From a virus: a stretch of DNA of 64,000 nucleotides. A program made the translations under genes and the position numbers. The DNA is taken from the IMG/VR virus record IMGVR_UViG_3300029258_005088, one strand, 5' to 3'. The notes under the pieces were generated by a model. The model was not told where the DNA came from and did no database searches. It saw nothing but the letters and a program-made list of their open reading frames with translations. Shown in pieces: positions 32,379-63,113 of this stretch. Position 1 is the stretch's first letter, and each line of letters starts with the position of its first letter.

Positions 32379-34211
32379 CTACAATCTCGATGGGTCCATT
32401 AGCTTCGGAATCATCGATGTCTGCTCGTGCTTGCTGCTGGAGCCATGCCGAACTGCCTCCAACATCGAGCGCTTGACACCGAACCCGGCCAGACGCACTT
32501 TCCAGTCCGGGTCCTCCGCAGGAATCCCCATCGCTCTTGTGACGTGAGGTTCGAATGCGGGCTCTCGTTTGTTTGCAACGATAGTCTCCACACCTTCATT
32601 AGCAAGAAACTTAGCCACCTTGGGAGTGATTTTCGTTCCTATGCTATAGTGTAAAACTGGTTTCTCGAGATACTGGCCGACGCCTCTCTTCGGATTCATC
32701 GAAGCCGATCCTTGACGGGGTTCGTAGTTTCTCTGGAGGGTTCCGTAAGGAACCACGTCCCCTATGACGTACCCCTGCAGGCCGTCGGGATCCGTTACCT
32801 TTACCCTGTCGAAGAAAGCCCTGGAAAGGACCTCGACGTTCCGTCTGTGGGTCGGTACGGAGTTCTTCTTGAGTAACTCGTAGAACTTGTTCTGGAAATA
32901 CATGCGTCCCTCGCCCAAGCCCTTGTACTTGGCTATCTCCGCTGGGTTTGGCGTGCCCGAGGTAAGTACGTCTCCGGCATCGACTTCCTGGCCGGGGCTT
33001 ACCTGTATCTTTCTGCCCTCCGGTACGTGAAGCTGCTGATCGTCGACGAACATGTAATGGCCGCCCTGCGGTGCTTTGACTATCTGGCGCACCTTCCCGG
33101 ACTTGGGAGCGAGTACGGCGGCGCCTCGGAACATCTTGGGCACCTGCACGAATTGATTGATCTCGTCGAATCCCTCGACGTTGTCGGAGTTGACGCCCAC
33201 GACTCCTCCGGTATGTTTGGCCGACAGAGCCATGCCCTGGGTCATCGGCTCCGATACCACGCGTCCCACCTCGATGCCTATCTGGGTGCCTATCGCCGGG
33301 AACGTTCCCTTCTCCCGCTTTCCAGAACATTTCTGGCAGACGCCTTCTTCCTGCTGGCACGTCAACAAGCTGCGTACAAGTGGCTTCTTCCCCCTCAGTT
33401 TCGGCAGGTGCCTCTTGTCGATAACCGTCCCCGCCGGTATGCCGTTCACGGTGCGGGAAAGGACGGCTCCGAGGATCTCGGGGTCGTCCCCGTCCACGAG
33501 TATTCCGACGTCATCGGCTCCACAGTCTTCTCCCATCACTCGGACGTGCTGGGACATGGCGGTTAGCTGCTTTCCCAGGAAGCCTGTCTTGGCGGTTGCG
33601 AACTGGACGTCGGCATATCCCTTTCTCGAGGCATAGGATCCGGCCCAGTATTCGGCGGGGGTGACGCCCTCTCCGTAACCATGCAGTCCGGGAATCGGAA
33701 CTGGACGACCCTTGTGGTCTGCGACCAGCATGTCGCCGAACATAAGCTGTATGACCTGCGTCGGGGATCCGCGAAAGCCCTGGGACAGTGCAAGCCCGTA
33801 GGCGTTGTCCCTGCCTTCGAGCTCTTTCATCAGCATGCTCTGGATGGTGGGCATCGCCTTCTTCATGGTGTCTACGATGCGCTTCTGCTTGGTATCCGCG
33901 GACATGCTGGGATTCTGTGCTATCTCCCGTATCCTGCCGCGCAGCTCCTTCCTATAGGCCTTGGTTCTCGGAGGCAGCTCTAGATCTTCCAGACGAAGGC
34001 TGGCGGGGCCCCCGTATTCGGTTCCGGCCACTCTGCTTACGTTGTTGAGGTTCTGCAGAACGTCGACGTACTTTTCGGGATGCTTGTCGGCGAGCTCCTG
34101 AAAGAACTGGGAACTGGACTTCATGTTGAATACTCGATCGCGATCCCGCATATCATCCGGGATCGCTCTCTCGACTAAAAGTCGTCCTATTGTCGTCGCG
34201 TTCTGTGGCAT
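32379..34211 (-). CDS. rpoC: DNA-directed RNA polymerase beta-prime, C-terminal half
   Basis: TTIGRLLV start, bridge helix ATAKTGFLGKQL, Zn site EDCG...RSLLTC...GVCQKC, trigger loop SEPMTQGMALSAKHTGG, and a switch region near the C-terminus. Confidence 0.93.
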   Translation of the reverse strand: MPQNATTIGRLLVERAIPDDMRDRDRVFNMKSSSQFFQELADKHPEKYVDVLQNLNNVSRVAGTEYGGPASLRLEDLELPPRTKAYRKELRGRIREIAQNPSMSADTKQKRIVDTMKKAMPTIQSMLMKELEGRDNAYGLALSQGFRGSPTQVIQLMFGDMLVADHKGRPVPIPGLHGYGEGVTPAEYWAGSYASRKGYADVQFATAKTGFLGKQLTAMSQHVRVMGEDCGADDVGILVDGDDPEILGAVLSRTVNGIPAGTVIDKRHLPKLRGKKPLVRSLLTCQQEEGVCQKCSGKREKGTFPAIGTQIGIEVGRVVSEPMTQGMALSAKHTGGVVGVNSDNVEGFDEINQFVQVPKMFRGAAVLAPKSGKVRQIVKAPQGGHYMFVDDQQLHVPEGRKIQVSPGQEVDAGDVLTSGTPNPAEIAKYKGLGEGRMYFQNKFYELLKKNSVPTHRRNVEVLSRAFFDRVKVTDPDGLQGYVIGDVVPYGTLQRNYEPRQGSASMNPKRGVGQYLEKPVLHYSIGTKITPKVAKFLANEGVETIVANKREPAFEPHVTRAMGIPAEDPDWKVRLAGFGVKRSMLEAVRHGSSSKHEQTSMIPKLMDPSRL

Positions 34212-34212
34212 G

Positions 34213-34791
34213 TCAGTTCTTGCTGAATATTGACGCTAGGGAGCGGTAGGTCGAATCAAGAGGACTCATGAACGGGTTCAGGCTCACACGTCCCTCGAGC
34301 TCGTCCGCGGCTACGGCACTCCTCTCCGCCAGGTCCAGGAACACCTTCTTGTTACGCTCGTGCTTGGCGTGATTGGCGAGGTACCTGTAGCCCTGCTCTC
34401 TGGCTCTATAGGTCTTCGCCGTCTGGTACTCGGCGGCCACCGGCCGTATCGATCTCCTCGCCAACCTGTTTGCTACGTTGCCTCCTCGGGCCGGGATGTC
34501 TCCGTACATGCCCTTCGGAAGCAGCTTGTCGGTTGCCAGGATCTCCTGCTTGGAGGGATCTCCCGTGGGTTTGTGCGTCTCGAGGTAACGAAGATGACCC
34601 TCGGGAGTGGAGATGTCTCCGGGCTCTCCCTTCAAGTACTGCCCCGTCAACAGTCCGGCACCGGCTCCGAGGCCACCGCCTATGAGCATGTTCTTGGCGG
34701 TATGGTCTTTCTTGTCCAGGATGCGTCTGGCGACAAGAACTCCGATAGCCGCCCCGATGGGGGTCGTAACTAGACGAGGGTCGATATTCAT
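34213..34791 (-). CDS. Glycine-zipper membrane-helix protein
   Basis: 192 aa; PIGAAIGVLVA and LIGGGLGAGAGLL helices. Confidence 0.6.
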   Translation of the reverse strand: MNIDPRLVTTPIGAAIGVLVARRILDKKDHTAKNMLIGGGLGAGAGLLTGQYLKGEPGDISTPEGHLRYLETHKPTGDPSKQEILATDKLLPKGMYGDIPARGGNVANRLARRSIRPVAAEYQTAKTYRAREQGYRYLANHAKHERNKKVFLDLAERSAVAADELEGRVSLNPFMSPLDSTYRSLASIFSKN

Positions 34792-34795
34792 GGCA

Positions 34796-35611: not shown

Positions 35612-35654
35612 CGGTGTTACTCCTTATGTTGAAAACCGGCATGCATCTCAAGAG

Positions 35655-35686
35655 ATTATAATACGAGTTTCTGGTTAGTTTTACAA
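35655..35686 (-). promoter_or_regulatory. Candidate promoter
   Basis: TTGTAA-N17-TATTAT(AAT) in an AT-rich intergenic gap. Confidence 0.55.
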
Positions 35687-35692
35687 GTTAAT

Positions 35693-35926
35693 TCATGGTA
35701 AGCCCGCGTTCTTGTGCATGTACCCGTCCATGTAGCCTTGATCGAATACGGATGCTTTCTTCGACATCTTCTTGGACTTCTTCTTTTTCTTTTTGTCCTT
35801 GGGATTCATCTTGCGCTTGTTGGCGGTGGCATAGAACACGCGCTTGCCTTCTTCCTCGCCGTAACGCTCCTGCATCTCTTTCATGACCTTGTCGCCACTG
35901 CCTTTGTAATATTCCTTGACCGGCAT
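35693..35926 (-). CDS. Small basic protein ending in the GYMDGYMHKNA motif
   Basis: 77 aa; start overlaps the upstream stop; RBS GGAG. Confidence 0.65.
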   Translation of the reverse strand: MPVKEYYKGSGDKVMKEMQERYGEEEGKRVFYATANKRKMNPKDKKKKKKSKKMSKKASVFDQGYMDGYMHKNAGLP

Positions 35927-37173
35927 TACACAACTCCCTCTCTAAGTTTGTTATCTTTATTTGCAATGGTCATTCCACTGGATAATGCCTTAAGCACCAG
36001 TTTAAACGCATTTCTATCTGTCAGGTACAGATACCTCATAGCGTCCGTCTTGGAGTGCTTCTTTCTAAGAGAATCATACTTATCCAGTGCCTTTCCGACC
36101 GCTGCGTATTCTTTCTTGTCAAAAGGTGACGGGATGCCCATGGATTTTGCTCTCTCATTGGACCTATGGAAAAGCCTTGCTCTACTCTGAGTCTTCCCTG
36201 GTTTTTCAGATTCCTGTAACCAAATCTTAGACGGACCTCCTAGACGGCTGAAATTTTCCGATCTGGTCATATTAGCGAAGTCTCCAACGAACTTCTTCCA
36301 GTTATCGTCTCCTTCCACCTTGGAGGCTATGTACTGTTTGTATTTATCTACCATATTGCCCCATTCCTCATTCAAAGAAGAGTCTGGGTATAGTGACTGT
36401 TTCACAGGACTGTCATTAGTTATTAAGGCAGTGTTCTTCTTAGGATCGGCCCAATAATTCATTATGCTCCTAAGTTCTTGATACGGCTGTGCCTTGTTCT
36501 TCATATCACTCTCTAACCAAGCCCTCTCTTTATCCGACGGCTCGGTCTTCCATGTCCGTCCATGGAATCGGGCGGCCCTTCTATAGTCTTCGTCTCCTAC
36601 CGGAAGCCCTTTCGCAAGATCGAACGCTGGATACTTGACGTCTGGTCCATCTATATCCGGATTGTGTCCTACAGTATAGGCAGGTGCGCGGCTAACATAC
36701 TTTGGAGGCCTTGTGTCTATCCAATGTCCGGTTCTTCCCTTCCAATTCAGATGACCAAAGTCTTTCATTGCTTTCAGCAGTGCCGGATGACAACCTCCTC
36801 CAAGGTTGCAGGCGTCAATATTCAAAGCATAGTCACCCTTCGAGGGCACTGCCCTGCTGACGTGATTCATGATTGTTGAATTTACTAAGTCCTTGTTGTC
36901 TACAGAGTAGGACGACCTTCCGCCACCATGCCCGTGTATACCTACCGTGGGAAGGCCTTTTACCGACCTAAATTGAGATGGGTCATCCTTAAGTCTAGCG
37001 TCGAATGCGTTATCCGGTCTACTGGGAGAATATGCCGTCGTGTATTTCTCGTTAATAGGGGTTGGTCTCCTTATATTATACTTCCAGGCGCTTTTGGCTT
37101 TTGACTGGTTATCTCCGGCTCTCTTGTTCATATAGCCGTCCTGGTAGCCTGTTCTATAGGACTTATCGGTCAT
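35926..37173 (-). CDS. Leader-tagged protein with a clan-CD (caspase / C80-like) cysteine protease domain
   Basis: Leader SYRTGYQDGYMNKRA; strand-His VGIHGHG and strand-Cys LNIDAC dyad pattern. Confidence 0.55.
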   Translation of the reverse strand: MTDKSYRTGYQDGYMNKRAGDNQSKAKSAWKYNIRRPTPINEKYTTAYSPSRPDNAFDARLKDDPSQFRSVKGLPTVGIHGHGGGRSSYSVDNKDLVNSTIMNHVSRAVPSKGDYALNIDACNLGGGCHPALLKAMKDFGHLNWKGRTGHWIDTRPPKYVSRAPAYTVGHNPDIDGPDVKYPAFDLAKGLPVGDEDYRRAARFHGRTWKTEPSDKERAWLESDMKNKAQPYQELRSIMNYWADPKKNTALITNDSPVKQSLYPDSSLNEEWGNMVDKYKQYIASKVEGDDNWKKFVGDFANMTRSENFSRLGGPSKIWLQESEKPGKTQSRARLFHRSNERAKSMGIPSPFDKKEYAAVGKALDKYDSLRKKHSKTDAMRYLYLTDRNAFKLVLKALSSGMTIANKDNKLREGVV

Positions 37174-39222
37174 TCACAGCACTCCCTTGGTCGCTCTCTG
37201 CAGAGATATTCGTTTTCCGCTCTCGAAGAGGGGCTTGACCTTGTCCAGCCTGGTCCCTGTCTGGCGGGCATACTGGCTGTTTCTGAAAGATTGTCTGAGG
37301 CGCTCGGCGTTTTCCGCCGTGGGATTGACCATGAGAGCGTTCACGGCGTTATGGCCCTGTTGGAACTCCTTGAGATTGTCTCCCAGTGCATAGGCATGGA
37401 TCTTGAGCCAGTTCTGCATCATGGGGTTGAGTTTGCGCCAGTTCGGGTTCCAGGCATCGAGCTGTGTCGGGACGATTTTCTCGAGGTGGTGCTTGGTCGC
37501 CGCCCAATCCTCTTTGGTCTTGATGGTGCCTTTGCCGCTGCGGAGCTGTTTGAATCTGTTGTTCCCCCAGATCTTGGAAAGCTTGGAGGTGTTGGCCGGA
37601 CTCATGTAATGCCCGGTACCGATCGTGGGATAAGGCTCCTTGACGCCTTCGGCATTGGTGACGTGCTTGGCGGTAGGGCTGAAACCCTCGGCCTTGCTGA
37701 GCCACGGGTGTATGGCTTCATGGGCCTTGTCTCCGGCAGTCTTGGACGCCATTCTCGTAGAAGGATCTTTATTTACGAGCCCCAGGAAATCTTCTGCCAT
37801 ATCCCATAATAAGGCTTCCCATTCTTTACCCTTCCCTTCCCTCTCCATTATGCTGCGCAATGCCCGTAGATCAAAAGAATCATCAACCATAGGCTTCAGT
37901 TCACGTTTTATCTTTCTGTCCGGAGACGTCGCCCACTGGAGAAATGCAAAGGCTTTCTTCTTATCGCTGACGTCTACTCCCATGTGACTTGCGAGTGCCT
38001 TGAGATTACCTAATCTTGCTTCTCTTTCTATCTGCCGCATGGTGTAGGGAGCGGTGTGTCTCTTACTTCGAGCCTCTATGAACTTTCCTTTTTCATCCGT
38101 ATCCTGCACCATCTCGCTCATCTTATCGTGAGCCCACGTGTCCGCACTAAGGTGTCTCTTGTTTCTAGCCGCATTCTCCCTTACGACATCTTGTGCCGTT
38201 CCCTTTCCTTCGCCCTTAAGCGGGTACCATTTTCTGGCATGCTGAAGTACGTGTCGATACTCATGAGGAAGGAGTCGAGCCGTATGAGGCCTTATCCAAA
38301 TATCTGGGATGCGTTTACCAGGAGAGTATATGAACCCTCCTCCGCTTTTGTCGGGAGCGTCCTCATTTCTAAGAATCTTGTACGGAAAAGGCCTGTCCAA
38401 TGCCTTGTCATCCAGCCTCATGGCAAACCTATTCTTATACCCTTCTTTCTTCCTATACTCTCTGGCCTGCTCAAGGGACTTCTTGAAGGCTTCTGGACTA
38501 GGATACGTACTGCTTATTACTCTCCTAGGCGTATCCACTCCTGAGACAATAGGCTTTACGACAGGGACGGCTTTCTTAGAAATTTCTTTACTAGCATCTG
38601 CAGGTACCTCTCCCTTGTCTCCGGCAGTCTTCGCTATGATCTTGCCGTCCTTCAGCTCGTAAGGAGCCCATACCTGGCCTTCTACATAGTTGCCCGTCAG
38701 CCTGGGCAGCATGTCGAGCTTGCCTGCTTTCCTAAGCTCCACCAAGGTCATCAGCGTCTTGACCTCCTCACTGAGATTGCTCTTGTTGTGTCGCTCTCTA
38801 CGGAGATAATCGAAGGAGTCGCCGGGCGAAAACGTGGAAGCCTGCAGAAGCTCTTCGTCTATAGGATATACCTGGGTCGACTTGATATCGTGACCCCATG
38901 CCTTCTTCTGCTTGTCGGTACGGAAATACAAAGGATGCTTCAACTGTACCTTGTCGCCGAGTTTCTTGACGGCCTCCTCTCGTAGCGCCTTTTCAAGTCG
39001 AACACGGTCCTGCTTGTACCGATCGGTGTTCTTGTCTGGGGTATGCTCTTTATACCACTGCAGAACCTGCTCCTGCTCCTCTGGAGGCATATCGAGGAAA
39101 TTTCCGGGAAGCTTGCCTCCACGACCATAGTGATATCCCTCGACCTTGGCAGTCTTGTCCATATACCCGTCGAGATATCCCGAGGATCCAGACAACAGAA
39201 CTGCTGTGGTTACCGACATCAT
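37174..39222 (-). CDS. Three-domain polyprotein: ART-like / zincin metallopeptidase / T4-type lysozyme
   Basis: Domains separated by KTA motifs at aa 23-25, 198-200 and 494-496. YHY...FSPGDS...YVEGQVW; HEYRH...EREARLG; AEGF...PTIGTGH. Confidence 0.7.
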   Translation of the reverse strand: MMSVTTAVLLSGSSGYLDGYMDKTAKVEGYHYGRGGKLPGNFLDMPPEEQEQVLQWYKEHTPDKNTDRYKQDRVRLEKALREEAVKKLGDKVQLKHPLYFRTDKQKKAWGHDIKSTQVYPIDEELLQASTFSPGDSFDYLRRERHNKSNLSEEVKTLMTLVELRKAGKLDMLPRLTGNYVEGQVWAPYELKDGKIIAKTAGDKGEVPADASKEISKKAVPVVKPIVSGVDTPRRVISSTYPSPEAFKKSLEQAREYRKKEGYKNRFAMRLDDKALDRPFPYKILRNEDAPDKSGGGFIYSPGKRIPDIWIRPHTARLLPHEYRHVLQHARKWYPLKGEGKGTAQDVVRENAARNKRHLSADTWAHDKMSEMVQDTDEKGKFIEARSKRHTAPYTMRQIEREARLGNLKALASHMGVDVSDKKKAFAFLQWATSPDRKIKRELKPMVDDSFDLRALRSIMEREGKGKEWEALLWDMAEDFLGLVNKDPSTRMASKTAGDKAHEAIHPWLSKAEGFSPTAKHVTNAEGVKEPYPTIGTGHYMSPANTSKLSKIWGNNRFKQLRSGKGTIKTKEDWAATKHHLEKIVPTQLDAWNPNWRKLNPMMQNWLKIHAYALGDNLKEFQQGHNAVNALMVNPTAENAERLRQSFRNSQYARQTGTRLDKVKPLFESGKRISLQRATKGVL

Positions 39223-39230
39223 ACCTTCCC
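39148..39230. repeat. 83-bp direct repeat, copy 1 (RBS + start + leader)
   Basis: 6 mismatches against 40206-40288. Confidence 0.95.
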
Positions 39231-40280
39231 TTTGTGTTTGCCGGGCTGCTGGTCCCTAGCCATAAGACTGCCCTCATCGATGAGGTCCTGCATCAGCTCA
39301 CGTTCCTCTGGCGCCAGGGCCTTGAGAGCCTTCTCTGCGTCCATGGTCTCACGCAGCTTGTCGTACTTCTTGATGAGTGGGTAGATCTTCTTGTAGTACT
39401 CGTCGTAGAACTTGAGGTAGCCGGCGTCATCTTCCTTGGCCTTGGACCTGCCGTACTCGTTGTCGCTGTATCCGTAGTTCCGCGCACGCTGGGCCTTGAG
39501 AAATTCGGCTGTGCGTGCAACCTGCGAAGCATTGAACTGCCCGGTACGCGTCTTTGCCTTGGCCGCATCCGTCTGGCGCTTTATGGAACTCTGTAGGTGG
39601 TCTGCTTTCGGAGCGTAGGGCATCATGCCCATGCTTATGAAGGTGCCTTCCCCACCCCGCATATTCTCTCGTCTGGTTTCTTCATGCTTCCTATCCGCAC
39701 CCTCGAAGGTGTTCGGATACTTGCGCAGTGCCGCACGCATCTTGGCATCGTTGAGCCTCCGATTAGCACTTCTGATGGCGGCCTCGGTTTCATACCTTTT
39801 GCCTGCTATTCCAGTGTGTATCGTCTTGGGGAACGTCTTGGGGTCCGGCAGTGCCGCACGCTCGGCTTCCAGCATCTTCAATCTCCTGGCATCGATCCGC
39901 CTCCCATGCGCACCTTGCTCCCTATTGGTCCACTCTATCATCTTTCGGAGACGTGCCTGATCTGCAGGGTTCTTCGCAGCCTTGAGCTGCTTCTCGTAGT
40001 CCTGGCGTATCTTATCGTAGCCCTGGTAATCCTTCTCCATGCCCTGCAACTGTTGATGAGTAACATTCTTTGGCTTTTCCGCCTTGATTGGCTTCGTCTT
40101 GGATGTAGTTGTCTGCGGAACCTTGATCTTACCGTAGTTCTTGGAGACTCCGCCTTCGACGGGCAGTGCTGCATGCTTGTTCAGCTCGCTCACGAATCTC
40201 ACGCCGGCAGTCTTGTCCATGTACCCGTCGAGATATCCCGAGGATCCAGACGACAAAAATGCTGTGGTCACCGACATCAT
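39219..40280 (-). CDS. Leader-tagged basic hypothetical protein
   Basis: Start reassigned to ATG 40280 (ATGA overlap; 353 aa). Leader MMSVTTAFLSSGSSGYLDGYMDKTA, then a second leader-like segment RFVSELNKHA. Confidence 0.65.
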   Translation of the reverse strand: MMSVTTAFLSSGSSGYLDGYMDKTAGVRFVSELNKHAALPVEGGVSKNYGKIKVPQTTTSKTKPIKAEKPKNVTHQQLQGMEKDYQGYDKIRQDYEKQLKAAKNPADQARLRKMIEWTNREQGAHGRRIDARRLKMLEAERAALPDPKTFPKTIHTGIAGKRYETEAAIRSANRRLNDAKMRAALRKYPNTFEGADRKHEETRRENMRGGEGTFISMGMMPYAPKADHLQSSIKRQTDAAKAKTRTGQFNASQVARTAEFLKAQRARNYGYSDNEYGRSKAKEDDAGYLKFYDEYYKKIYPLIKKYDKLRETMDAEKALKALAPEERELMQDLIDEGSLMARDQQPGKHKGKV

Positions 40281-40288
40281 GCCTTCCC
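40206..40288. repeat. 83-bp direct repeat, copy 2
   Basis: Matches 39148-39230 at 77 of 83 positions. Confidence 0.95.
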
Positions 40289-41887
40289 CATAAACTCCAG
40301 TGTTTTCTGAACCAGCCAAGACCGTCCGGAGGCTTCCTTCTTCATAGACGAGCCTTCTTCTTCGGGAGCTCCGTCCATTTCCTCGACCTCTTCCTCGCCT
40401 TCTTCGCGGAAGTCCTCATCGGTTGGATCCAGCTCCTCGAGCAGAGCTTCCAACTCCCCGACGTGTACCTTCTCCTCGTCGGCTATATCCTGAAGAATCT
40501 GTGCGGCACGCCTGTTCTCGGTGCTGTCGGCCACTGTTTCGTAGTGCTTGATCGCCTTCTGCTCTTCTATGATGGCGTCTCGAACGGCACGAGTCAGTTC
40601 ACGACGACCCAGCCTGGGAAGCTCCTTGACGTTCTCCATGCTACTCGCAGTCTTGGCTATATGTCTCGTCTCGAAAAGCACCTTGATCAGTGCCGCCCGT
40701 TTCTCCTGGCTTATCATAGGTGCCTCCAATTCTGAATACGCGTATTCACTTTTGCCTTCCTTACCTTCCATCTTCTCGAGGTCTGTGTAATAATCAGGCA
40801 TTTCTGTAAGATGATCCAACGCGATTTCTTCTGCAAGCTTCTGGTCTCTTGTATGTTCCTTTTCGACCTTCTTCCCCTTCTTGAGCTCTTCTTTGTCGAC
40901 ATCCTTCGGAGTTACGTTTTCTTTGTCGGCAAGGCCCGTAGTATCGGATCCGACTTTCTGCAGGGGCTTCAACACTTTCGAGGTATCCCCACGGGCGACC
41001 CACTTCTTGAACTGGTCCATGGTAAGTGCGGTGATGGAGCCGAGACCGTCCCAGCCTTTCTCGTAGTTGTCTAGATATCCCTTGCGGGCATCCTTCTCGT
41101 TGGTGAAGCCCAGCATGCACTTGTGCTCGTCGAAGCCTTTGCCTCCTTTGTTCGTCTGGTTGACGACGAACACCATCTCAGAGTCTACGTCCGGTCCGAT
41201 GAAGACGTCTACGTGATCGCCGTCGGCGTCGGACTTAGTCCGCTTGATGTAGCCGTAGTGATGCTTCATCAGGGTCTTCCATTCCGTACCGTCCGGGGAT
41301 TTGCCTTTACGATACTGGCCCTTTAGATTCTCGATGGTGATGTCCATACCATGCAGGCGGGTATGACCCTTGCGATAATTACCTGCTTCGGCCTGTTCCT
41401 TGGACTTCGGCTGAACCGGCGTGCCCTTGATCTTTAGGGAAGCTTCTTTTTCACCCGGCTCCTGCGAAGGGGCTCCATATATCTCGGCCAGTTGTAGCTT
41501 TCTCACCTCCTCGTTACTTAGATAGTTGCCCTCGTCATCGATGGGATGATATAAGTCCTCTCCGCTATTCAACTGCTCGGTCTCGAACTCGGTCAGATAA
41601 CCACGCCTCATTTCCCACAATTTCTTTTCTAGGTACTTACCCAGTGCGTCCTCTTCTTCCGTACCTCCTGTGCCATAAGACGAAGGTATCGCCGCATTTA
41701 TTTTTGTATACAGCCTCAGTCTTTGTCCTGGAGTGAGTTCTTCCCAGTGTGCTTCTTCCAGCTCATTCTGGGCTATTCCTGGTACTGTCTGTGTGGCTCC
41801 TTCGTCTACCACAGCGTCTCGGGCCTCCTTCTGCTGCTTCGCCTCCTTCCACGAAAGGATCATATTCGTAAAATCTGTTCTAGTCAT
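40277..41887 (-). CDS. Polyprotein: unknown domain / InPase / DUF5661-like / ferritin-like
   Basis: Start reassigned to ATG 41887 (536 aa). GNYRKGH...IEN...YGYI...DGDHVDVFIGP...FDEHKCMLGF; VEKEH...IALDHLTEMPDYY; EEQKAIKHYE...EEKVHVGEL. Confidence 0.75.
   Translation of the reverse strand: MTRTDFTNMILSWKEAKQQKEARDAVVDEGATQTVPGIAQNELEEAHWEELTPGQRLRLYTKINAAIPSSYGTGGTEEEDALGKYLEKKLWEMRRGYLTEFETEQLNSGEDLYHPIDDEGNYLSNEEVRKLQLAEIYGAPSQEPGEKEASLKIKGTPVQPKSKEQAEAGNYRKGHTRLHGMDITIENLKGQYRKGKSPDGTEWKTLMKHHYGYIKRTKSDADGDHVDVFIGPDVDSEMVFVVNQTNKGGKGFDEHKCMLGFTNEKDARKGYLDNYEKGWDGLGSITALTMDQFKKWVARGDTSKVLKPLQKVGSDTTGLADKENVTPKDVDKEELKKGKKVEKEHTRDQKLAEEIALDHLTEMPDYYTDLEKMEGKEGKSEYAYSELEAPMISQEKRAALIKVLFETRHIAKTASSMENVKELPRLGRRELTRAVRDAIIEEQKAIKHYETVADSTENRRAAQILQDIADEEKVHVGELEALLEELDPTDEDFREEGEEEVEEMDGAPEEEGSSMKKEASGRSWLVQKTLEFMGKA
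40733..40748. repeat. TGAATACGCGTATTCA palindrome (copy 2)
   Basis: Exact 16-bp palindrome in an inter-domain linker (encodes EYAYS). Confidence 0.95.
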
Positions 41888-44800
41888 TCGTATTCCTCTC
41901 TGACCTATGCGTGTAACCGTCCATATACCCGTGCGAGGCGTATTTCTGTCCACTAGGAAGTGATCGGTTGTCCACTACCAAAGGAAGCTCCTCTGAAAGC
42001 ATGTCAATGAACTTAATCTTCTTATCCGGAGTCAGTGTGTCGTAGTATTCAAGGAACTGCCTGGCACCGTGCTTATAAGGACGGTCTCCTTCGAAGAACT
42101 CCGTCAGTGCCTTTTTCGCCTCTGCCTTATTCCTGGCTCTACCTCCCTTGTTGTACCACCACGCTTTGATATCTCCTAGCCGTACCTCTCTCTCCTTATC
42201 GTCGATGAGGAAATATGCTACGTCGGACTGGCGGTCACTCCATTTGCTATCTACTATGAGTTTTCCATCGGCGTCTTTAACCCGCTCTTTCGTCTTGGGG
42301 TCCGTTTTAAATACGGTCCTTGTCGGGGTCATGTCAGGTTCGAACTCTTTCATATAGGCCATACTTCTCTTGAGTATATCCGGATGCCTTGCGTGTCCTA
42401 GGTTTTTGTTCAAACCAACCGTCTGATAAAAGCGAGGGTATTGTTTGTCCCCTACCTCGGGTATCTGGAAATTATGCCTGCTCTCGTGGATTATGGAATG
42501 ACCTAGGTCGGACACGTCTTTCTTTCCTCTAGCTCCTACGGTCATAGTAGGATGAACGCTCTCTACAGGACCGCTTTTCAAACCGCCCCCCTCCGGATAC
42601 ACGAAATCACTTTTGGTTCCTGCATTATGCTGGGCTCCGTACCACATCTTAGGGTCGAACTTCATCGGAATATACCTTTGAGGAAATCTAGTGGGCATGT
42701 CGATGCGCTCGACCCGCATGTTCGGAACCATGCCCGTGGCCTTCTGGTAGGCCAAGGCATCCTGAACGGACTTGTCTAGATTGCTGGGCTCTCCTGGCTT
42801 GTACACGCCTTGGTGATACCATCCACCGTACTGGTGGTGAAGAGGGAAGTACGTATCTACCTTTCCCTTGTTTTTACCCTTGTCCTCGCCCTTCCAGCCC
42901 CATTCGGCCATCTCCCAGGCTTTTTTATTTCTCTCGGCCCTTGCATTGAACTCCTTCTGCTTGGCTGCCTGAGCCGCCATCATCTGCTTCTTGATGGCCT
43001 CTATCTGCTTCTGATACGCACCTATCCTGTCTTGGTATCCCTTACCCATGTATTTCATCTGGTACTTATCCGTGGCAGGTGCCTTGGTGTCTACGTCAAC
43101 GGTCTTGACGGGAGGAGTTAATACAGGGTTGTTCACGGCCTTCTTGGCAGGTGTCTTGGAAGCTTGTTCGGCAATCGAAGGAACAGCGGGAGCCGCTCCG
43201 GAACTAGCCTCCTTCTGCTGTTTCTTCTTCTGACGTTCTTGCCATTCCTCGTACTTCTTCGGATTGTCCTTGAAGTACTGCAGCATATCGCCGCATGCAA
43301 CTTTCTGGACCTTGCCCGGAGGTCTTATCATCAGAGGGTACGGTCTATTGCGTTCCTCGTCCATAGGCATGATCCCGGACTTCTCGTCACCGGGAAGGAA
43401 CCCGTGCTTCCTGTAAAGGGATATCAGAGCTGCCAGACGGGCTTCGTATTCCTCGTCGTCGAAGTTCTCGTGCTCCTGCAGGTTCTCGTCCAGCTCGAAC
43501 GGCCCGGCTCTGAGAGCCAGGGTCTTCTTCTTGTTGTCTTTGACGATCTGTTTCAAAAGCTTGTCGGCAAAGCCCTTTCCTCGAAAATGAGGATCCGTGT
43601 GGATGTCTCCGACCACGCTGTAGTCGCCGTTGTCCTTCACGGTTGCATAGGATGCATCCACTCCCTTGTCGGTTACGAAATACTCCTTGACCGGTCCGTC
43701 CCCGTGAGTGGATACCTTGGCCTTCTTCTGCATGTCGCCACAGGCCACTTTCTCGTTGTCTATGAGATCCCAGGCGTCGTCCTTGGACATACCTTTCTCC
43801 TGAAGATCCCACGCTCTACGTATCCTGTCCTTTGCAGCGGAAGTCTTCACAGAGATGTCTACGTCCGGACTCGCCGCTGTAGCCGTATGCTCTCCCTCGT
43901 CTCTCTCCTTGAACCGAAACTCTTCGGATTCCGACAACTTCCTAAGTAGACGTACCAGACGAGCCCGCTTCTTGGGATCGTCCTCGAAGATGTGATAGTC
44001 CCAGTCCCTTCCTTCCGGATGAGGTCTTCCGTAAAAATCAGCTCTTCCCCTAGAGCCCGTCAGTTCTGCCTTACGGATCAGACGCTTCTTGAGGTCTGCC
44101 TTCTTCTGCATATTACCCGTATTCTTGTAGACCTTCTTCGCTATGTCATCCCAGATCTCTCTGCAGTGCTGGTCCTTGATGCACGTGATCTGCAGCTCCA
44201 TGCCCAGATGCTCTCTGCACCACTTCTTGATGGCGCGTCGGGCCACGCCGTCGTTGTCTCCGGCCACTCGAGCGGTGAATATCTTGATCTTCTTGCCCCG
44301 GCCGATATAACGCTTCACGCGGTCGACCATCTTCTGGATGGGCGCTCCGATGACGTCCGGACCCTTCCAGCCGTCGTATTTGGCCAGAGTACCGTCGAGA
44401 TCCACGCCGATCCACTCCTCGTCGGAAGCCTCCTTGTCCATCCCCAGAGGATCTCCGTAGTCCATCGTAAGCTCGGTATCTTCCGGAATGTCCCGCAATG
44501 CCTTGAAATAGCAACCATCGGGAGCGGGGTCGAATACGACGTTTGGATCCGATGCGTGGTTGGTGTAGCGTGCTCCGATCGTGCGATGCAGCTCCCTGTC
44601 CAGTGCGAGTGCGAACGACTCTCCCCGTTTTACGGGCTTGGTGACGAACGCGCCTTTTCCCTCTATGTCGGAATCCCTTATCTCTATGGGATCCTCGTCT
44701 GGCTGGGGAATGAGGTCGTCTGCATACTCCGAGTTTTGCCTATGCTCTTCCGCACTCGTTCCGCTCTCCTGCAGGTAGGTCTCGAAATCTGAACCCGTCT

Positions 44801-45026
44801 TCTGGAACAGAGGCGTTGCGACCTCTCTAGGAAGATGGAAGCGGAAACCGCTGGGACGATGGGTGACTCCGACGACGTCCCTCTCCCTGGAATCGATCTC
44901 GAAATCGCCGGGGTTCTTTCGTATGAGATCCGTTGCCAGCCTATGCTTCTCGGTATAGTTCCGTCTGTCCGACTCCTTCTTCAAAAGGAGAAGCGACTGT
45001 ATAAGCTGTCCTCGTCTTTGGTTCAT
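41880..45026 (-). CDS. Polyvalent polyprotein: small N-domain / SET / HAD / nucleotidyltransferase / GNAT / zincin
   Basis: GKGAF...RYTNHASDPN...ELTMDYG; IGVDLDGTLA...IFTAR...WDD; TGSRG...DWDY; DPHFRGKGFA...LYRKHGF; HESRH...EREVRLG. KxA-like motifs lie at each boundary. Confidence 0.8.
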   Translation of the reverse strand: MNQRRGQLIQSLLLLKKESDRRNYTEKHRLATDLIRKNPGDFEIDSRERDVVGVTHRPSGFRFHLPREVATPLFQKTGSDFETYLQESGTSAEEHRQNSEYADDLIPQPDEDPIEIRDSDIEGKGAFVTKPVKRGESFALALDRELHRTIGARYTNHASDPNVVFDPAPDGCYFKALRDIPEDTELTMDYGDPLGMDKEASDEEWIGVDLDGTLAKYDGWKGPDVIGAPIQKMVDRVKRYIGRGKKIKIFTARVAGDNDGVARRAIKKWCREHLGMELQITCIKDQHCREIWDDIAKKVYKNTGNMQKKADLKKRLIRKAELTGSRGRADFYGRPHPEGRDWDYHIFEDDPKKRARLVRLLRKLSESEEFRFKERDEGEHTATAASPDVDISVKTSAAKDRIRRAWDLQEKGMSKDDAWDLIDNEKVACGDMQKKAKVSTHGDGPVKEYFVTDKGVDASYATVKDNGDYSVVGDIHTDPHFRGKGFADKLLKQIVKDNKKKTLALRAGPFELDENLQEHENFDDEEYEARLAALISLYRKHGFLPGDEKSGIMPMDEERNRPYPLMIRPPGKVQKVACGDMLQYFKDNPKKYEEWQERQKKKQQKEASSGAAPAVPSIAEQASKTPAKKAVNNPVLTPPVKTVDVDTKAPATDKYQMKYMGKGYQDRIGAYQKQIEAIKKQMMAAQAAKQKEFNARAERNKKAWEMAEWGWKGEDKGKNKGKVDTYFPLHHQYGGWYHQGVYKPGEPSNLDKSVQDALAYQKATGMVPNMRVERIDMPTRFPQRYIPMKFDPKMWYGAQHNAGTKSDFVYPEGGGLKSGPVESVHPTMTVGARGKKDVSDLGHSIIHESRHNFQIPEVGDKQYPRFYQTVGLNKNLGHARHPDILKRSMAYMKEFEPDMTPTRTVFKTDPKTKERVKDADGKLIVDSKWSDRQSDVAYFLIDDKEREVRLGDIKAWWYNKGGRARNKAEAKKALTEFFEGDRPYKHGARQFLEYYDTLTPDKKIKFIDMLSEELPLVVDNRSLPSGQKYASHGYMDGYTHRSERNTND

Positions 45027-45730
45027 TTCTTCGCACGTTCCGCCATCTTGGCAAGAGCCTCTTTCTTCTTTTTCTCCTCGTCCGCCTCTCCGGAGGCGAG
45101 TGCGAGTTCCTTTTTCTGCAGCTCGAGTTCCTTCTTCTGCAGAGCTTCCATGGCCTTGAGCCTGTTCTGGATCTTCTTCCGTTCGATGACGGTCATTATC
45201 GTGAGAACGAGGGGAAGGCCTATGGCAACTCCTCCCGCTGCGTAGGCATATGGCTTGATCTGGTTCCAGGTGTCCTGTCCCGCCGATGTTATGCCTCTGT
45301 TGATCTGTCCCTGGATATCCAAGTCGGAGTTTGTCTTATCGACTATCTCCTGAACTTTATCCCGGGCGCGGTTGAGACTGGCGTCCACTAGCTCTCGAGA
45401 ACGCCTATCAGCCAAGTCATAGCTCTTGTTTGTCTGCTCTCTCACTCTTTCCGCAGCGGCGTCGATTATGTCTTCATACTCCCTTTTATACAGTCTTCCT
45501 GTCTCTTCAGCCGTGCGGGCAAGCTCGTCTCGCCACTCTCGTCCCTGGTCTCGCCTGGTACGGCCCACTAGACCTTCCACGCCTTTGGAGACTGCCCAGC
45601 CAGGACCTTCCGTGACAACGGTCTTCGCCACGTTCCATGGCGAGAACTTCTCCTTGAGACTTTCATACAAGCGATCACCGAACCCGGATTCCTTGTGCAT
45701 GTAGCCAGCTATGTATGCTTCGTTGTTCAT
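45023..45730 (-). CDS. Leader-tagged coiled-coil protein with one TM helix
   Basis: MNNEAYIAGYMHKES leader; AYAAGGVAIGLPLVLTIMTVI helix. Confidence 0.65.
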   Translation of the reverse strand: MNNEAYIAGYMHKESGFGDRLYESLKEKFSPWNVAKTVVTEGPGWAVSKGVEGLVGRTRRDQGREWRDELARTAEETGRLYKREYEDIIDAAAERVREQTNKSYDLADRRSRELVDASLNRARDKVQEIVDKTNSDLDIQGQINRGITSAGQDTWNQIKPYAYAAGGVAIGLPLVLTIMTVIERKKIQNRLKAMEALQKKELELQKKELALASGEADEEKKKKEALAKMAERAKK

Positions 45731-45739
45731 ATTGATCCT

Positions 45740-46795: not shown

Positions 46796-46798
46796 GCT

Positions 46799-49700
46799 CT
46801 AATCCTCGACTACTCTTATGGGGTCGTCTATCGTTATCTCGCCTCTGCTGAACGCCATCATGGCCTCCTGCATCGACTTGAATATCCTGGTCTGCCCTTT
46901 CTTCGGCGGCTTCGTCGCGAAGTACAGGCCCTGAAGATACTCGTTCGACGGGGTATAAGCGGGCTTGCCGAATCTGGACGAGATCAGATTCTTCTCTGGC
47001 ATCATCAGCTCATTCGCCTGGTCCACTGCCTTCTGTGATACCGGTACAGTAAAACTAGCAGTATCGCCATCGAAATCCATAGCGAACGGACCAACTATGG
47101 TAGGACTTACCTGAATGGTCTTGCCCTTTGTGAGGACCGGCGTGAACGCCATGTTCGAGTACTTGTGCAGCGTAGGCGCTCTGTTGACCAATACAGGACG
47201 CTTCTTGATGACGGATTGCAAGGCTTTGTACGCCGGAGGGCTCTTGGCTTCCACGGCCTTTGCAGCCTGTGTCGCCGGATATCCCTTGCCTACCATCTCC
47301 CTTACCACGAAATCGCCGTATAGATTCCATGCCAGCTTCTCGGGCATGCCTATCTGGTTAAGCTTCAAGGAGGGGTTTGGAGCTACGACGCCCAGACCGG
47401 ACACGTCTATGTTGGTTCCTATGACGCGGCGCTGAACGAAGCCGAACTTGGGAGATCCCTTGCCGAAGATCTGCTTGAGCATACCGCCTACGTTCTTCTG
47501 CTGGAGCTGTTCCTGGTCCGGATCGGTCATGCCCACCAGAGTGTTGTAGGACTTCCACACGTTTCCCCATGCCTCGGACCGGATGTCCTTGGGCATGCCG
47601 TCGGTATCCTTGTAGTCCTGTATGTTCTCCAGAAGGGTCTTGTAGAGATAGTTCGGATCGGCAACCATCGTCATGTCGCTCTGTCTGGATATCGGGCGGA
47701 ACCTCGGAGGCAGTACGGGGACGCGGGTCATCAGGAAGTCTTCCGGCTTGACGTCGTGTTTCTCCATGGCGTCGATATACCGGAACAACTTCACGGCGTC
47801 GTCTCTCTTGGACTTGGCTCCGTGCTTGATCTGCTCCAGAGTGCGCTGCTTCAACGAAGGCATGTTCACCCTGCTCAGCATGTAGGACAACGCCTCGGAT
47901 CCACTCCTGCCCTCCACCTCGGTGTTTCCGGCGACCATGTCGTCGAATTCCTTCTGCTTCATGCCGAGTATGCGTCGGAGGGGTTCGGACATGATGGGGT
48001 TCGGCATCGGAGCCGGGAGCTTGATGTAAGACCACTTGTCTCCGTTGCCCATGCTCCCCGTGGCCTCTGGATCGAACAGGCCGCCGGGTATGGGTCGGAG
48101 GTTCTTGGCGTCGTAGGTCGACGGGTTCTTGATCTCACGGGCACCGGTCAGTGCCTCCGCCTGATTGTTGGTCATGGCGAATACGCTGTCCTTGTCCTTG
48201 TCCTCGTGCAGGTTGATGCCGGCCGCTCGTATAAGGCTCTTGAACTTCTGATAGACCAATGGAGTATCGGGCTGCGTCGGAGTCTCGCCCAGCTTGAGCT
48301 GTCTCCAGAAATTGCTGTTCTTCTGTCCCTTGATGATCTTGAGATCCTTGAGAACCTGGTCGGCGCCATGGGCCTGCAGAGCCTGTATCTCCATATCTCC
48401 GAGATGCTTGGCTCCTTCCTTTCCGCCGCGTGCCGGTTGATCCTCCGCGGTATACCTGGAAGTGCCTCTGGACTTGCCCTTTCCTTCCGCGGTATGCTGG
48501 AGCTTGTAGACGTAGGTCATGCCGGTCAGAATGCCCGGTATGGTCTTGCCCGTCTTCGGATCGTACAGATCTTCGTTGGCCTTGACGTTGTTCTTGTACG
48601 CCTCTCGGGCGGCGAACTTCTTCATGTCCTCGTCCAGGAACCCCGGCAGCACGTACGGCTTTCCGGTCTTTTCCGCTACCTTGCCCAGAACCACTTCCGA
48701 TTTCTGCGCTGGGTTGGTACGGCTGTGGATGCCGAGTGGCGAGAATATGACGTCGATCGGCCGTCCCTTGGAATCCCTAGGCATGTCTTCGTCCCTGATT
48801 ACCTCGGCGACCACGCCTTTGTTGCCGAAGCGCCCGGAAAGCTTGTCGCCCTCTTCCATGGGGACGTTGGCCCTGACGTTGATGTTGTAGCCTTTCTTGC
48901 TGGGCTCGGCATCGGTGACCACGGCCGGGAACTCGTGCTTCCATACGACGCTGTCGTCCGTACGGGTCTTGCGTCCCATCGACTGGGGCGTGGGCTCTCG
49001 CTCTTTCACGGCCAATACCATGGGATCGCCGTAGTTCACCACGGTACCGGTCTTCACGACCCCGTCGTCTCCTATGGTGCCGAGCTGGGACTTGCTGAAT
49101 CTGGATGGGTACAGGGCCTGGAACTTGGCTTTGTCCGTGAACACGTCTTTGTCCTTCTCGAACTTTGTCGTGTACATGTGCTCTGACGTCAGCTTTTCCT
49201 TTGCGGCGGACTGGGATATGACGACGGCGTCCTCGAACACCTTTCCGTCGTAGTTCAGATAGGCCACGCGAAGGTTCGTTCCCAGTGCGGATACGCCATC
49301 CGGATCCGTATAGTTCGAAGTCGCAAGTACTGCGCCTTTTCCCACCTTCTGGCCAGCCTTTACCTTGGGAGTGTTCCTGATGAAGGTCTTGCGGGCATAC
49401 GGGTGGTTGTCGTAAAGGTCTATGGTCTCTTCCGTTCCGTCGTCGTAGGACATCTTGAGGTGATCCTTGTAGACCGCCTTGACGACGCCCGGTTTGGAAG
49501 CTTTCACCGCGCCCATGTAAACGCCCATGCGCTCCTCCTCGGAACCTCCCTTGGGATTGGAAGTCCTTACGAGAGGGGCCTGACGACCAACCAGAGGAAG
49601 TGCCTGTCTGGCGAACTTGTTCCCCATCAGCAGGCGCATGCCTTTGACGCCCGACTTCAACGGAACCAGGTTGGCGGTATCCGAGAACATCTCGTCGCCG

Positions 49701-51205
49701 TCGGGAAGCAGGTAGTCCAGGTCTTTCTTGTGGACGTACTTCATGTCGCGTCCCTTGGACAGAGTCGGTACGTACGAGTCTCCGGGCTCCGACGATCCGG
49801 GCATGCCTATGTTGGCTTCCGTGGCGTCTCTCACGCCCACCCATTCCTTCTTGCCGGTCTTCGCATTGATGAGCTGGGTGTAAAGCTGCCTGTCGGGACC
49901 GCGTCTGACGTTTCTGGCCAGGCGCATGTCGAGACCTATGCGGAGCGACTCCGGGGCCACCACGGGATCGATGTAGCCGAGGTACGACGGTTGTACGTTT
50001 CTGGACTCCTTCGGCGCGGAGTCTATGCTGGGAAGGGCACCCTCTCCGAGGCGGCTGACTCGAACGTTCTGGTCGTAGATGTCGGAGGGATTGATCTCTT
50101 CGATTGCCTGAGCCACTCCCGTGGCAGTGAACAGATGGCTGACGTGCGCGTCCAGAAGGGAAGGCGGTATCTTCTTCATGTCCTGACCGCGGCCGGTAAG
50201 CTTCCACAGAACCTTGCGCAGGGCGCCGCCCTGATCGTTCTTGATCTTCTCCGCCAGGAAATCGGAGACGTCGTATATGTCCTGGTACGCAAGGCTGTCG
50301 CGGCTATCTGTATCGGCTTTGCCTTTGCCAACGTTCAGTATCTTGGTCGTAGCCGCCATGATGGCTTCCGGAGTGGCGTTCATGTACTCGGTTCCCAGCG
50401 TCCGCCGAGTTACCCTGGGACTGAGCTCGGTCCTCGAGAACTCGCCTATGACGTTGGCCTGGAATTCCGGATCGTAATCGGTCTCGGAAGCCTGCTTGTC
50501 CATGTTCTTGAACCCGACTGCCTTGATGAGTTCCTCTCTGGCCTCGTCCCTCTGGGGACGGAACTGCTTCAGGAAATTGACTGCGTAGGGGCTGTTCTGC
50601 AGAGCTTTGTTCTTCTCCGCGAGCTCCTTGCCCCACGTCTTCTCTATGCGTTCGTGAGGAATGCCCATGGCTCTGAGCACGGGGTACATCGGAACCTTGC
50701 GTCCCTTGTAGCGCATGAAGAAATGCCCGCTGCCCGGTTCCATGTATACTCTGAAGCTCGATCCGGTACGGGGTTTGGCATTGAACTGGGCCTCGATGTT
50801 TCCGTCGTCGGTAACCCTGGTGTATACACCGGGCACGAGACGAAACTGCTTCGCTATGGTGTATTCGACGCCCTTGCGGATGTAGGTCCCTCTGTCCGTA
50901 AGGTGAGGGACGTTCATCAGGCGCTTCTGGTTCGTCCTTCCTACTACGGTGCCCGTGGCGTTGTCCACGAGCTCGTAATTACCGACGAGCTTGTCCGATA
51001 GGGATTGTCCGGCCAGTATGGCCTTCTTCTGATCCTTGAGGGAGAAGCTGTCCTTGCCGGAGAACTTTGGATTTACCACGCGCAGAGTGAACTGCTCGTT
51101 AACTGCCGGGGGCGACTCCTGAACCGCTTTCAGGACTTTGTCCCGGAGGTCCTGGCGAACCCTGGGATAGTCCGTATAATCGAGAAGTTGTTGTTCGTTC
51201 ATCAC
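46799..51205 (-). CDS. rpoB: DNA-directed RNA polymerase beta fused to the N-terminal half of beta-prime
   Basis: Beta motifs: YLGYIDPVVAPES, LLMGNKFARQA, GDKLSGRFGNKGVV, YKLQH...GDMEIQAL. Then beta-prime motifs: GGLFD, PVLPPRFRP, NRAPTLH and the catalytic loop AMDFDGD (47063-47083). Confidence 0.95.
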   Translation of the reverse strand: MMNEQQLLDYTDYPRVRQDLRDKVLKAVQESPPAVNEQFTLRVVNPKFSGKDSFSLKDQKKAILAGQSLSDKLVGNYELVDNATGTVVGRTNQKRLMNVPHLTDRGTYIRKGVEYTIAKQFRLVPGVYTRVTDDGNIEAQFNAKPRTGSSFRVYMEPGSGHFFMRYKGRKVPMYPVLRAMGIPHERIEKTWGKELAEKNKALQNSPYAVNFLKQFRPQRDEAREELIKAVGFKNMDKQASETDYDPEFQANVIGEFSRTELSPRVTRRTLGTEYMNATPEAIMAATTKILNVGKGKADTDSRDSLAYQDIYDVSDFLAEKIKNDQGGALRKVLWKLTGRGQDMKKIPPSLLDAHVSHLFTATGVAQAIEEINPSDIYDQNVRVSRLGEGALPSIDSAPKESRNVQPSYLGYIDPVVAPESLRIGLDMRLARNVRRGPDRQLYTQLINAKTGKKEWVGVRDATEANIGMPGSSEPGDSYVPTLSKGRDMKYVHKKDLDYLLPDGDEMFSDTANLVPLKSGVKGMRLLMGNKFARQALPLVGRQAPLVRTSNPKGGSEEERMGVYMGAVKASKPGVVKAVYKDHLKMSYDDGTEETIDLYDNHPYARKTFIRNTPKVKAGQKVGKGAVLATSNYTDPDGVSALGTNLRVAYLNYDGKVFEDAVVISQSAAKEKLTSEHMYTTKFEKDKDVFTDKAKFQALYPSRFSKSQLGTIGDDGVVKTGTVVNYGDPMVLAVKEREPTPQSMGRKTRTDDSVVWKHEFPAVVTDAEPSKKGYNINVRANVPMEEGDKLSGRFGNKGVVAEVIRDEDMPRDSKGRPIDVIFSPLGIHSRTNPAQKSEVVLGKVAEKTGKPYVLPGFLDEDMKKFAAREAYKNNVKANEDLYDPKTGKTIPGILTGMTYVYKLQHTAEGKGKSRGTSRYTAEDQPARGGKEGAKHLGDMEIQALQAHGADQVLKDLKIIKGQKNSNFWRQLKLGETPTQPDTPLVYQKFKSLIRAAGINLHEDKDKDSVFAMTNNQAEALTGAREIKNPSTYDAKNLRPIPGGLFDPEATGSMGNGDKWSYIKLPAPMPNPIMSEPLRRILGMKQKEFDDMVAGNTEVEGRSGSEALSYMLSRVNMPSLKQRTLEQIKHGAKSKRDDAVKLFRYIDAMEKHDVKPEDFLMTRVPVLPPRFRPISRQSDMTMVADPNYLYKTLLENIQDYKDTDGMPKDIRSEAWGNVWKSYNTLVGMTDPDQEQLQQKNVGGMLKQIFGKGSPKFGFVQRRVIGTNIDVSGLGVVAPNPSLKLNQIGMPEKLAWNLYGDFVVREMVGKGYPATQAAKAVEAKSPPAYKALQSVIKKRPVLVNRAPTLHKYSNMAFTPVLTKGKTIQVSPTIVGPFAMDFDGDTASFTVPVSQKAVDQANELMMPEKNLISSRFGKPAYTPSNEYLQGLYFATKPPKKGQTRIFKSMQEAMMAFSRGEITIDDPIRVVED

Positions 51206-60397: not shown

Positions 60398-60417
60398 ACT
60401 GAATACGCGTATTCAGT
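60398..60417. repeat. 20-bp perfect palindrome containing TGAATACGCGTATTCA (copy 3)
   Basis: ACTGAATACGCGTATTCAGT, overlapping the stop codon of the desulfurase-like gene. Confidence 0.95.
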
Positions 60418-61537: not shown

Positions 61538-61546
61538 TGGGAATAC

Positions 61547-63088: not shown

Positions 63089-63113
63089 TTTCCGACCTCT
63101 TAGTATATGGTTG

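Follow-up and report, generated by a model that had tools for sequence, protein, structure and literature searches.

A two-chain phage RNA polymerase with beta fused to the N-terminal part of beta-prime, from the genome of an uncultured tailed phage

The DNA analysed here is a stretch of 64,000 nucleotides (IMG/VR record IMGVR_UViG_3300029258_005088, called the window below) from a 201-kb uncultured phage. Our analysis confirmed that the window encodes, in two chains, the catalytic core of a bacterial-type two-barrel RNA polymerase. One gene (46799–51205) specifies a chain of 1468 amino acids (P0001) in which the beta subunit is continued by the N-terminal part of beta-prime, and a second gene (32379–34211) specifies the C-terminal part of beta-prime as a separate chain of 610 amino acids (P0002). 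Both genes are read from the minus strand, which holds nearly all genes of the window according to the listing of open reading frames (ORFs). An ENA metagenome contig of 201,176 bp bears the same fusion chain, whereas megablast of 22 kb against deposited phages and an exact 40-mer search of IMG/VR gave no match. The layout marks a large family of tailed phages with genomes of about 160–230 kb, including the cultured Salmonella phage Arash and Vibrio phage D69. It is apparently an undescribed, large variant of phage-encoded bacterial-type RNA polymerase, since no description of the fused-and-split layout was found in the literature searched, which included reviews on jumbo phages and the papers that describe the mReC phages and Arash. 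On balance we consider it likely that this polymerase is the phage's only one, lacks alpha and omega, is made late, packaged and injected, works with a sigma factor of its own and is helped in its assembly by the tether between its two large subunits.

A preliminary description of the sequence had read the longer chain as beta running into beta-prime and the shorter one as the remaining C-terminal part, and Pfam, phmmer searches of the PDB and alignments bore this out. The Pfam domains of P0001 followed the order Rpb2_2, Rpb2_3, Rpb2_6 (E 4e-46), Rpb2_7 and then Rpb1_1, Rpb1_2 (E 7e-21) and Rpb1_3, and P0002 gave Rpb1_5. Among solved structures P0001 matched Thermus thermophilus beta (4.6e-61) and, towards the end of the chain, residues 166–562 of Clostridium thermocellum beta-prime (8i23_D, 8.7e-52); P0002 matched residues 579–1083 of the latter (6.7e-44) as well as E. 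coli beta-prime 571–947 and 1151–1287. All strong matches of both chains were to bacterial polymerases, and the identity to bacterial chains was about 27–30%. Structure models of the chains matched the bacterial beta and beta-prime folds. The AlphaFold model of P0002 had a predicted local distance difference test score (pLDDT) of 79.8, and Foldseek aligned about 650 columns of it, essentially the whole length, to bacterial beta-prime. A homologue of the fusion chain with 58% identity was present in a complete phage genome, G001.

The anatomy of the chains was derived from a profile of 22 homologues compared with E. coli RpoB and RpoC, and from an alignment with six bacterial beta/beta-prime pairs; positions in beta-prime are given in E. 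coli numbering. Beta reaches its C-terminus (GINLH) intact, at residue 1000. It is followed by a seven-residue linker, EDKDKDS (residues 1001–1007; 48185–48205, minus strand), which lies where the junction had been placed earlier, near 48200. After the linker beta-prime restarts at about residue 14, with the PIPGGLFDP segment included, and the junction region was modelled with pLDDT values mostly of 70–90. P0001 carries both double-psi barrels. The clamp helices (47693–47809, minus strand; aligned to E. coli beta-prime inside a match of 265 bits over 160–550), the lid/rudder region and the catalytic barrel are all kept. The lysine motif of the beta barrel (GDK..R.GNKG) was found as GDKLSGRFGNKG at residues 786–797. 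The Mg-binding catalytic loop reads AMDFDGD (residues 1375–1381; 47063–47083, minus strand), as had been reported for the 1468-residue chain, and its cellular counterpart is NADFDGD. D1377, D1379, G1380 and D1381 were invariant in the 22 homologues, and the two residues preceding them varied across the family. P0001 ends at beta-prime position 554 or thereabouts and P0002 starts at about 569–571, opening with TTIGR, so that the break does fall just before the TTxGR segment. P0002 supplies the bridge helix (a helix at residues 193–220), the second zinc site (Cys 230/285/292/295), the trigger segment (311–356) and the C-terminal domain, without an SI3 insert.

Two elements of the bacterial core are reduced. 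P0001 is without any cysteine, and GSMGNGDK (within the deletion scar TGSMGNGDKW, 48032–48061, minus strand) takes the place of the 31-residue N-terminal zinc ribbon of beta-prime (positions 66–96), so the four-cysteine ribbon of a bacterial-type core is absent. The deletion is common to every family member aligned, including forms in which beta and the whole of beta-prime are one chain. The preliminary description had the N-terminal zinc-binding domain missing; this holds for the ribbon but not for the beta-prime N-terminus as a whole. The short flap mentioned in the same description was evident at the flap tip (residues 735–751; 48953–49003, minus strand), which falls 11 residues short of its length in six bacterial beta chains, has lost the LLRAIFGE helix motif and is modelled by AlphaFold without a helix. 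A reduction of this size is confined to the window's subclade, the tips of Arash and D69 being only 3 residues short.

A word-indexed search with the fusion chain returned 822 proteins at E ≤ 1e-10. The best 120 of the 822 were all strong matches (E ≤ 1e-163) that extended across the junction and the N-terminal part of beta-prime; nearly all of them had both beta and beta-prime Pfam domains, and many carried inteins. Inteins or homing-endonuclease domains interrupt many family members, and the two genes of the window are free of them. In an exhaustive search with the junction half, scores above 530 bits were obtained for more than 150 representatives (clustered at 50% identity), most of which share the same C-terminus. 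In IMG/VR, 511 contigs encode a relative of the fusion chain, several of them complete at 165–226 kb. The same reading frame and end point recur in hundreds of independent contigs at 34–83% identity: the window's chain stops 94 residues after the start of AMDFDGD, the family norm is about 90–100 residues after DFDGD, and the same end was seen in the alignments and in nine contigs filed under metagenome-assembled genomes (MAGs). The cultured relatives are Arash (29.6% identity over 99% of the chain) and the Vibrio phages D69, whose polymerase genes are annotated as hypothetical, D148 and D181.

The separation of the two genes by 12.6 kb, which had been presented as part of the arrangement, is real as a distance but is not a feature of the design. 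Of 80 IMG/VR loci, 62 had the gene for the beta-prime C-terminal part on the same strand and downstream of the fusion gene; the gap measured 966 nt in the median and 7415 nt at most, and that of 12,588 nt in the window is the largest seen. BLAST detected no conserved gene in the interval. Over 0.9–63 kb the window is collinear with G001, save for a block at 35.6–45.7 kb (35612–45739, minus strand) of about 10 kb. None of the ORFs called in this block has a match in G001, and its GC content is 0.50–0.53 against 0.55–0.58 in the flanks. The lack of counterparts together with the lower GC content identifies the wide gap as a lineage-specific, local insertion of cargo of the injected-effector type. 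The block encodes a 558-aa protein with InPase, DUF5661 and Rubrerythrin domains (40277–41953) and a 1048-aa SET/GNAT multi-enzyme protein (41880–45026), both of which resemble polyvalent proteins that phages inject with their DNA. The corresponding beta-prime C-terminal ORF of G001 (G001:101836-104103) is 778 aa long and bears an insert that corresponds in position to residue 200.

In a maximum-likelihood tree of beta plus the N-terminal part of beta-prime (a quick search with 31 rows, 1454 columns, about five bacterial lineages and no archaeal outgroup), all phage forms made up one clade with 100% support in the SH-like approximate likelihood ratio test (SH-aLRT). A branch of about 1.9 changes per site lay between this clade and candidate phyla radiation (CPR) bacteria, Staphylococcus, a Clostridia MAG, a myxobacterium and E. 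coli. Single-chain forms of about 2000–2100 aa, in which a single ORF comprises beta and all of beta-prime (L098, L104, L112 and L119, all MAG-filed), branched at the base of the phage clade. Their basal position suggests that the fusion came before the second splitting of beta-prime. In a tree of the N-terminal part of beta-prime, Rhizobium phage RHph_Y65, which keeps the zinc-ribbon cysteines and NADFDGD, fell on the bacterial side. The separate chains of a 9.9-kb contig filed under Bacteroidetes (L138), a beta of 1202 aa and a 637-aa N-terminal part of beta-prime that ends about 105 residues after DFDGD, grouped with bacteria on a long branch and may represent another split variant.

Nesting of the two genes within a bacterial rpoBC clade that already has this split was not seen. 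The family stood apart from the sampled phyla, the bacterial genomes found carry separate rpoB and rpoC, and wherever a scan of prokaryote genomes met the fused form, the contig was phage-like; these contigs had been assigned to many unrelated phyla. A bacterial origin of the layout, or a bacterial clade sharing it, was thus rejected; the matches in CPR bacteria were ordinary rpoB plus rpoC. The best solved-structure matches are all bacterial and related contigs carry the names of many bacterial and archaeal MAGs, as they might if the locus were host or contaminating bacterial rpoBC DNA, or if the fusion were an assembly or frameshift artefact. We regard the chance of either as negligible. The 201-kb contig bears portal, capsid and baseplate genes, the recurrence of frame and end point in hundreds of contigs and the long, fully supported branch speak against both, and MAG labels spread over unrelated phyla are what mis-binned phages would be expected to show.

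The absence of recognisable alpha and omega genes noted in the preliminary description was upheld. Neither family was found among about 50 scanned ORFs of the window, and the alpha dimerisation domain (PF01193) and omega (PF01192) were found in none of five complete relatives, with 14 of 14 control genomes positive. Arash and all five complete relatives have a single PF00562 (beta-type) gene. A search for single-subunit enzymes with PF00940 had no positive control and is not evidence of their absence.

A different outcome was obtained for initiation, which the missing ribbon and short flap had been taken to hint was independent of sigma70. Pfam on the ~50 ORFs and tblastn with the sigma factors of Arash and the relatives found no sigma inside the window, and the reason is that the gene sits 0.73 kb beyond its left edge. 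Synteny predicted a sigma gene just past this edge, and when the flank was examined the gene was confirmed: a sigma-70-family gene of 235 aa on the same strand (L186:12317-13024; record 30574-31281) with a Sigma70_r3 match of 36.9 bits (cut-off 25.3) and a C-terminal helix-turn-helix (HTH) of 24 bits with weak region-4 signals. An ATG-start ORF of 238–267 aa with sigma-70 region 3 was present in five of five complete relatives, and Arash Gp10 is of the same size (Sigma70_r3, 35.7 bits). A weak Sigma70_r2 match in G001 (16.5 bits) was discarded as not being the real sigma. At the left edge of the window (1–884) a 537-aa gene spans the boundary and is followed by a Baseplate_J-like gene, so that the sigma gene is embedded in a baseplate block. 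In the bacterial holoenzyme the clamp helices are the main dock for sigma region 2 and the flap tip docks region 4. We infer, on good support, that promoters are recognized through the phage's own compact sigma docking on the kept clamp helices. Initiation without a sigma-70-type factor, in the manner of the phiKZ/AR9 enzymes with their unrelated promoter-recognition subunits, would fit the deleted zinc ribbon, the flap tip that is 11 residues short and the lack of a sigma family inside the 64 kb, but it is very unlikely, given a sigma gene so close on the same strand, its homologues in all five complete relatives, the detection of a homologue in Arash virions and the retention of the helices that bind sigma region 2.

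The preliminary description had also suggested a virion-packaged polymerase, and an indication in its favor comes from Arash. Mass spectrometry of purified Arash virions gave 3516 spectra for Gp206, the counterpart of the fusion chain and the highest count of all proteins, 1210 for Gp216, the counterpart of the beta-prime C-terminal chain, and 467 for the sigma factor Gp10 (PMC10585845). Gp206 and Gp216 were among the five most-detected virion proteins, the count for Gp206 exceeded that for the major capsid protein (MCP), and a neighbouring helicase was also detected (PMC10585845). In the window the polymerase genes lie within a block of head genes on the minus strand, in the order portal, fusion, beta-prime C-terminal part and MCP, as in Arash by tblastn. 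The portal gene is upstream (57184–59061; E 3e-50 to Arash portal gp204) and the MCP gene downstream (22736–23716; E 7e-25 to Arash MCP gp226, with a weak PHROG match to a major head protein). A 226-aa Arash protein annotated as structural, gp7 (L003:7425-8105), resembles residues 223–339 of P0002 (31% over 123 aa, E 8e-5) and may be a stand-alone copy of this beta-prime segment in a virion module.

A short motif also connects the polymerase with the head. The DKQAS previously reported inside beta occupies residues 236–240 (50486–50500, minus strand) in a variable loop. The pattern [DQ]K.[AG][SDC] occurred at 15 sites in the window's proteins, compared with 2.9 ± 1.7 in shuffled sequences; they included sites near the N-terminus of the capsid protein, in scaffold-like proteins, between the domains of the polyvalent protein (six) and in beta (one). 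As the motif had been defined on the window, it was tested in the independent genome G001, where the head module had 8 sites against 2.0, the tail block 2 against 0.84 and the rest of the genome 2 against 3.1. Enrichment in head-module proteins was thus about 4–5-fold in both genomes (window 21.8–57.2 kb, G001 90–124 kb), and tail and replication genes showed none. The 11 closest aligned homologues have K-x-A/G/E-S/A at the same variable beta loop, with unconserved flanks. We infer that the motif may be a signal for a head protease or for targeting to the head. The Arash proteomics, the position in the head module and the head-specific motif together indicate that the virion probably carries the enzyme along with the phage sigma. 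The polymerase might instead stay outside the virion, being expressed late by virtue of its operon position and reading middle and late genes while the host polymerase reads the early ones. Its place in a late-looking structural operon is compatible with this, and a genome with one polymerase set would need that set beyond the first minutes in any case. The Arash preparation also contained ribonucleotide reductases and RNA ligases, and its authors warn that abundant enzymes may co-purify (PMC10585845). We nevertheless consider a non-virion enzyme unlikely, since Gp206 outnumbered even the MCP in spectra, portal and capsid genes flank the polymerase gene throughout the family, and the head-specific motif is found on a conserved polymerase loop in two independent genomes.

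The closest described system is that of Arash itself. Its Gp206 (1525 aa) and Gp216 (606 aa; OQ632216) show the same two-chain partition, gene order, sigma size and single polymerase set as the window. Arash differs in its nearly full-length flap tip, in an SNF2 helicase gene that adjoins the beta-prime C-terminal gene, in a second sigma-like gene and in the spacing of the polymerase genes, which are separated by 4.8 kb that include genes on the opposite strand. In the Arash paper the two chains are labelled 'beta' and 'beta-prime', and no mention is made of the fusion (PMC10585845).

Multisubunit polymerases of phages are known mainly from the phiKZ/AR9 group, where they consist of four or five pieces. 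These are likewise two-barrel enzymes without alpha or omega, with one set in virions and beta-prime split after the catalytic barrel (PMC7598289). They differ in having beta in two or three pieces that are never fused to beta-prime, two paralogous sets and no sigma homologue (PMC7598289, PMC7824862), and they are far more divergent from cellular enzymes; the window has a whole, fused beta, one set and a sigma gene. The mReC phages and Kleczkowskaviridae (RHph_Y65) are tailed phages with bacterial-like beta and beta-prime that also branch outside the cellular clades. The mReC genomes encode separate, mostly adjacent beta (~1000–1400 aa) and beta-prime (~900–1015 aa) chains (Weinheimer & Aylward 2020, Supplementary Data 2). 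Identity of the present family with the mReC clade was rejected on subunit lengths and on the tree, and the beta-prime of RHph_Y65 does not group with the Arash-like family.

Cellular enzymes offer two partial parallels. In cyanobacteria and plastids beta-prime is also cut between the catalytic barrel and the bridge helix (rpoC1/rpoC2). As had been stated earlier, the phage split is near this break but not at it: P0001 aligns up to about residue 552 of the 624–625 of the cyanobacterial gamma chain, and residue 70 of P0002 corresponds to residue 55 of cyanobacterial beta-prime, which places the phage break tens of residues upstream. In cyanobacteria, moreover, beta forms a chain of its own, and the enzyme has alpha, omega and the zinc ribbon. 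The fusions of Helicobacter and Wolbachia join the C-terminus of beta head-to-tail with the N-terminus of beta-prime, as here, but leave beta-prime undivided and have not dispensed with alpha and omega; in the phage form beta-prime has been split again.

The course of events that we favor can be outlined as follows. The core consists of beta tethered to the N-terminal part of beta-prime, plus the beta-prime C-terminal chain; it has no N-terminal zinc ribbon and would do without alpha and omega. It would be made late alongside the head proteins, packed in the capsid and delivered with the DNA, so that the early phage genes could be transcribed without the host polymerase. The compact phage sigma, with regions 2 and 3 and a region-4-like HTH, would dock on the clamp helices and provide promoter recognition, and the covalent link between beta and beta-prime would take over part of the role of the alpha dimer in assembly. 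Several points weigh against this outline. The tether as a substitute for alpha is pure conjecture, and the activity of the family members is a prediction from sequence. Binding of sigma to the core is likewise predicted, and the flap tip, the dock for region 4 in bacteria, is shortened in the window's own subclade. Presence in virions is known for Arash alone, whose chain is 29.6% identical to that of the window, and the co-purification mentioned above applies to that preparation. The trees were quick ones, with few bacterial lineages and no outgroup. A more specific version of the outline is doubtful in our estimation: a head protease might cut the chain of beta and beta-prime N-terminal part at the K-x-A/G-S loop (DKQAS, residue 240), which would yield an injected three-piece, sigma-dependent enzyme lacking alpha, omega and the zinc ribbon, in which the tether replaces the alpha dimer as the assembly platform.

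Little could be learned from the surrounding genes, as PHROGs and Pfam returned almost nothing for the neighbours in the head module. Directly after the beta-prime C-terminal gene lies a gene for a protein of 715 aa and no known family (30169–32316, minus strand), a conserved companion whose homologue is found directly 3' of the beta-prime C-terminal gene in 53 of 80 IMG/VR loci. Pfam, PHROG and Atlas gave no lead for this protein, which is perhaps polymerase-associated or head-internal. Near the portal region (60413–63938) there is a trio of genes for a class-V aminotransferase, a putative mannosyltransferase and an FkbM-type methyltransferase, which may form a sugar-modification module for virion proteins or DNA.

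The family, which extends over hundreds of environmental phages, represents a second, far more bacterial-like phage solution beside that of phiKZ/AR9, with two chains and a sigma of its own. Structural and biochemical studies could make use of it as a naturally minimal sigma-dependent polymerase and as a test of whether a tether can stand in for the alpha scaffold. Should the three-piece version be true, the enzyme would be the smallest known sigma-using RNA polymerase and its passage through the phage tail an undescribed way to deliver a multisubunit polymerase. The favored outline would explain how these large phages could start infection independently of the host enzyme, and the cultured Arash and D69 allow direct tests of it.

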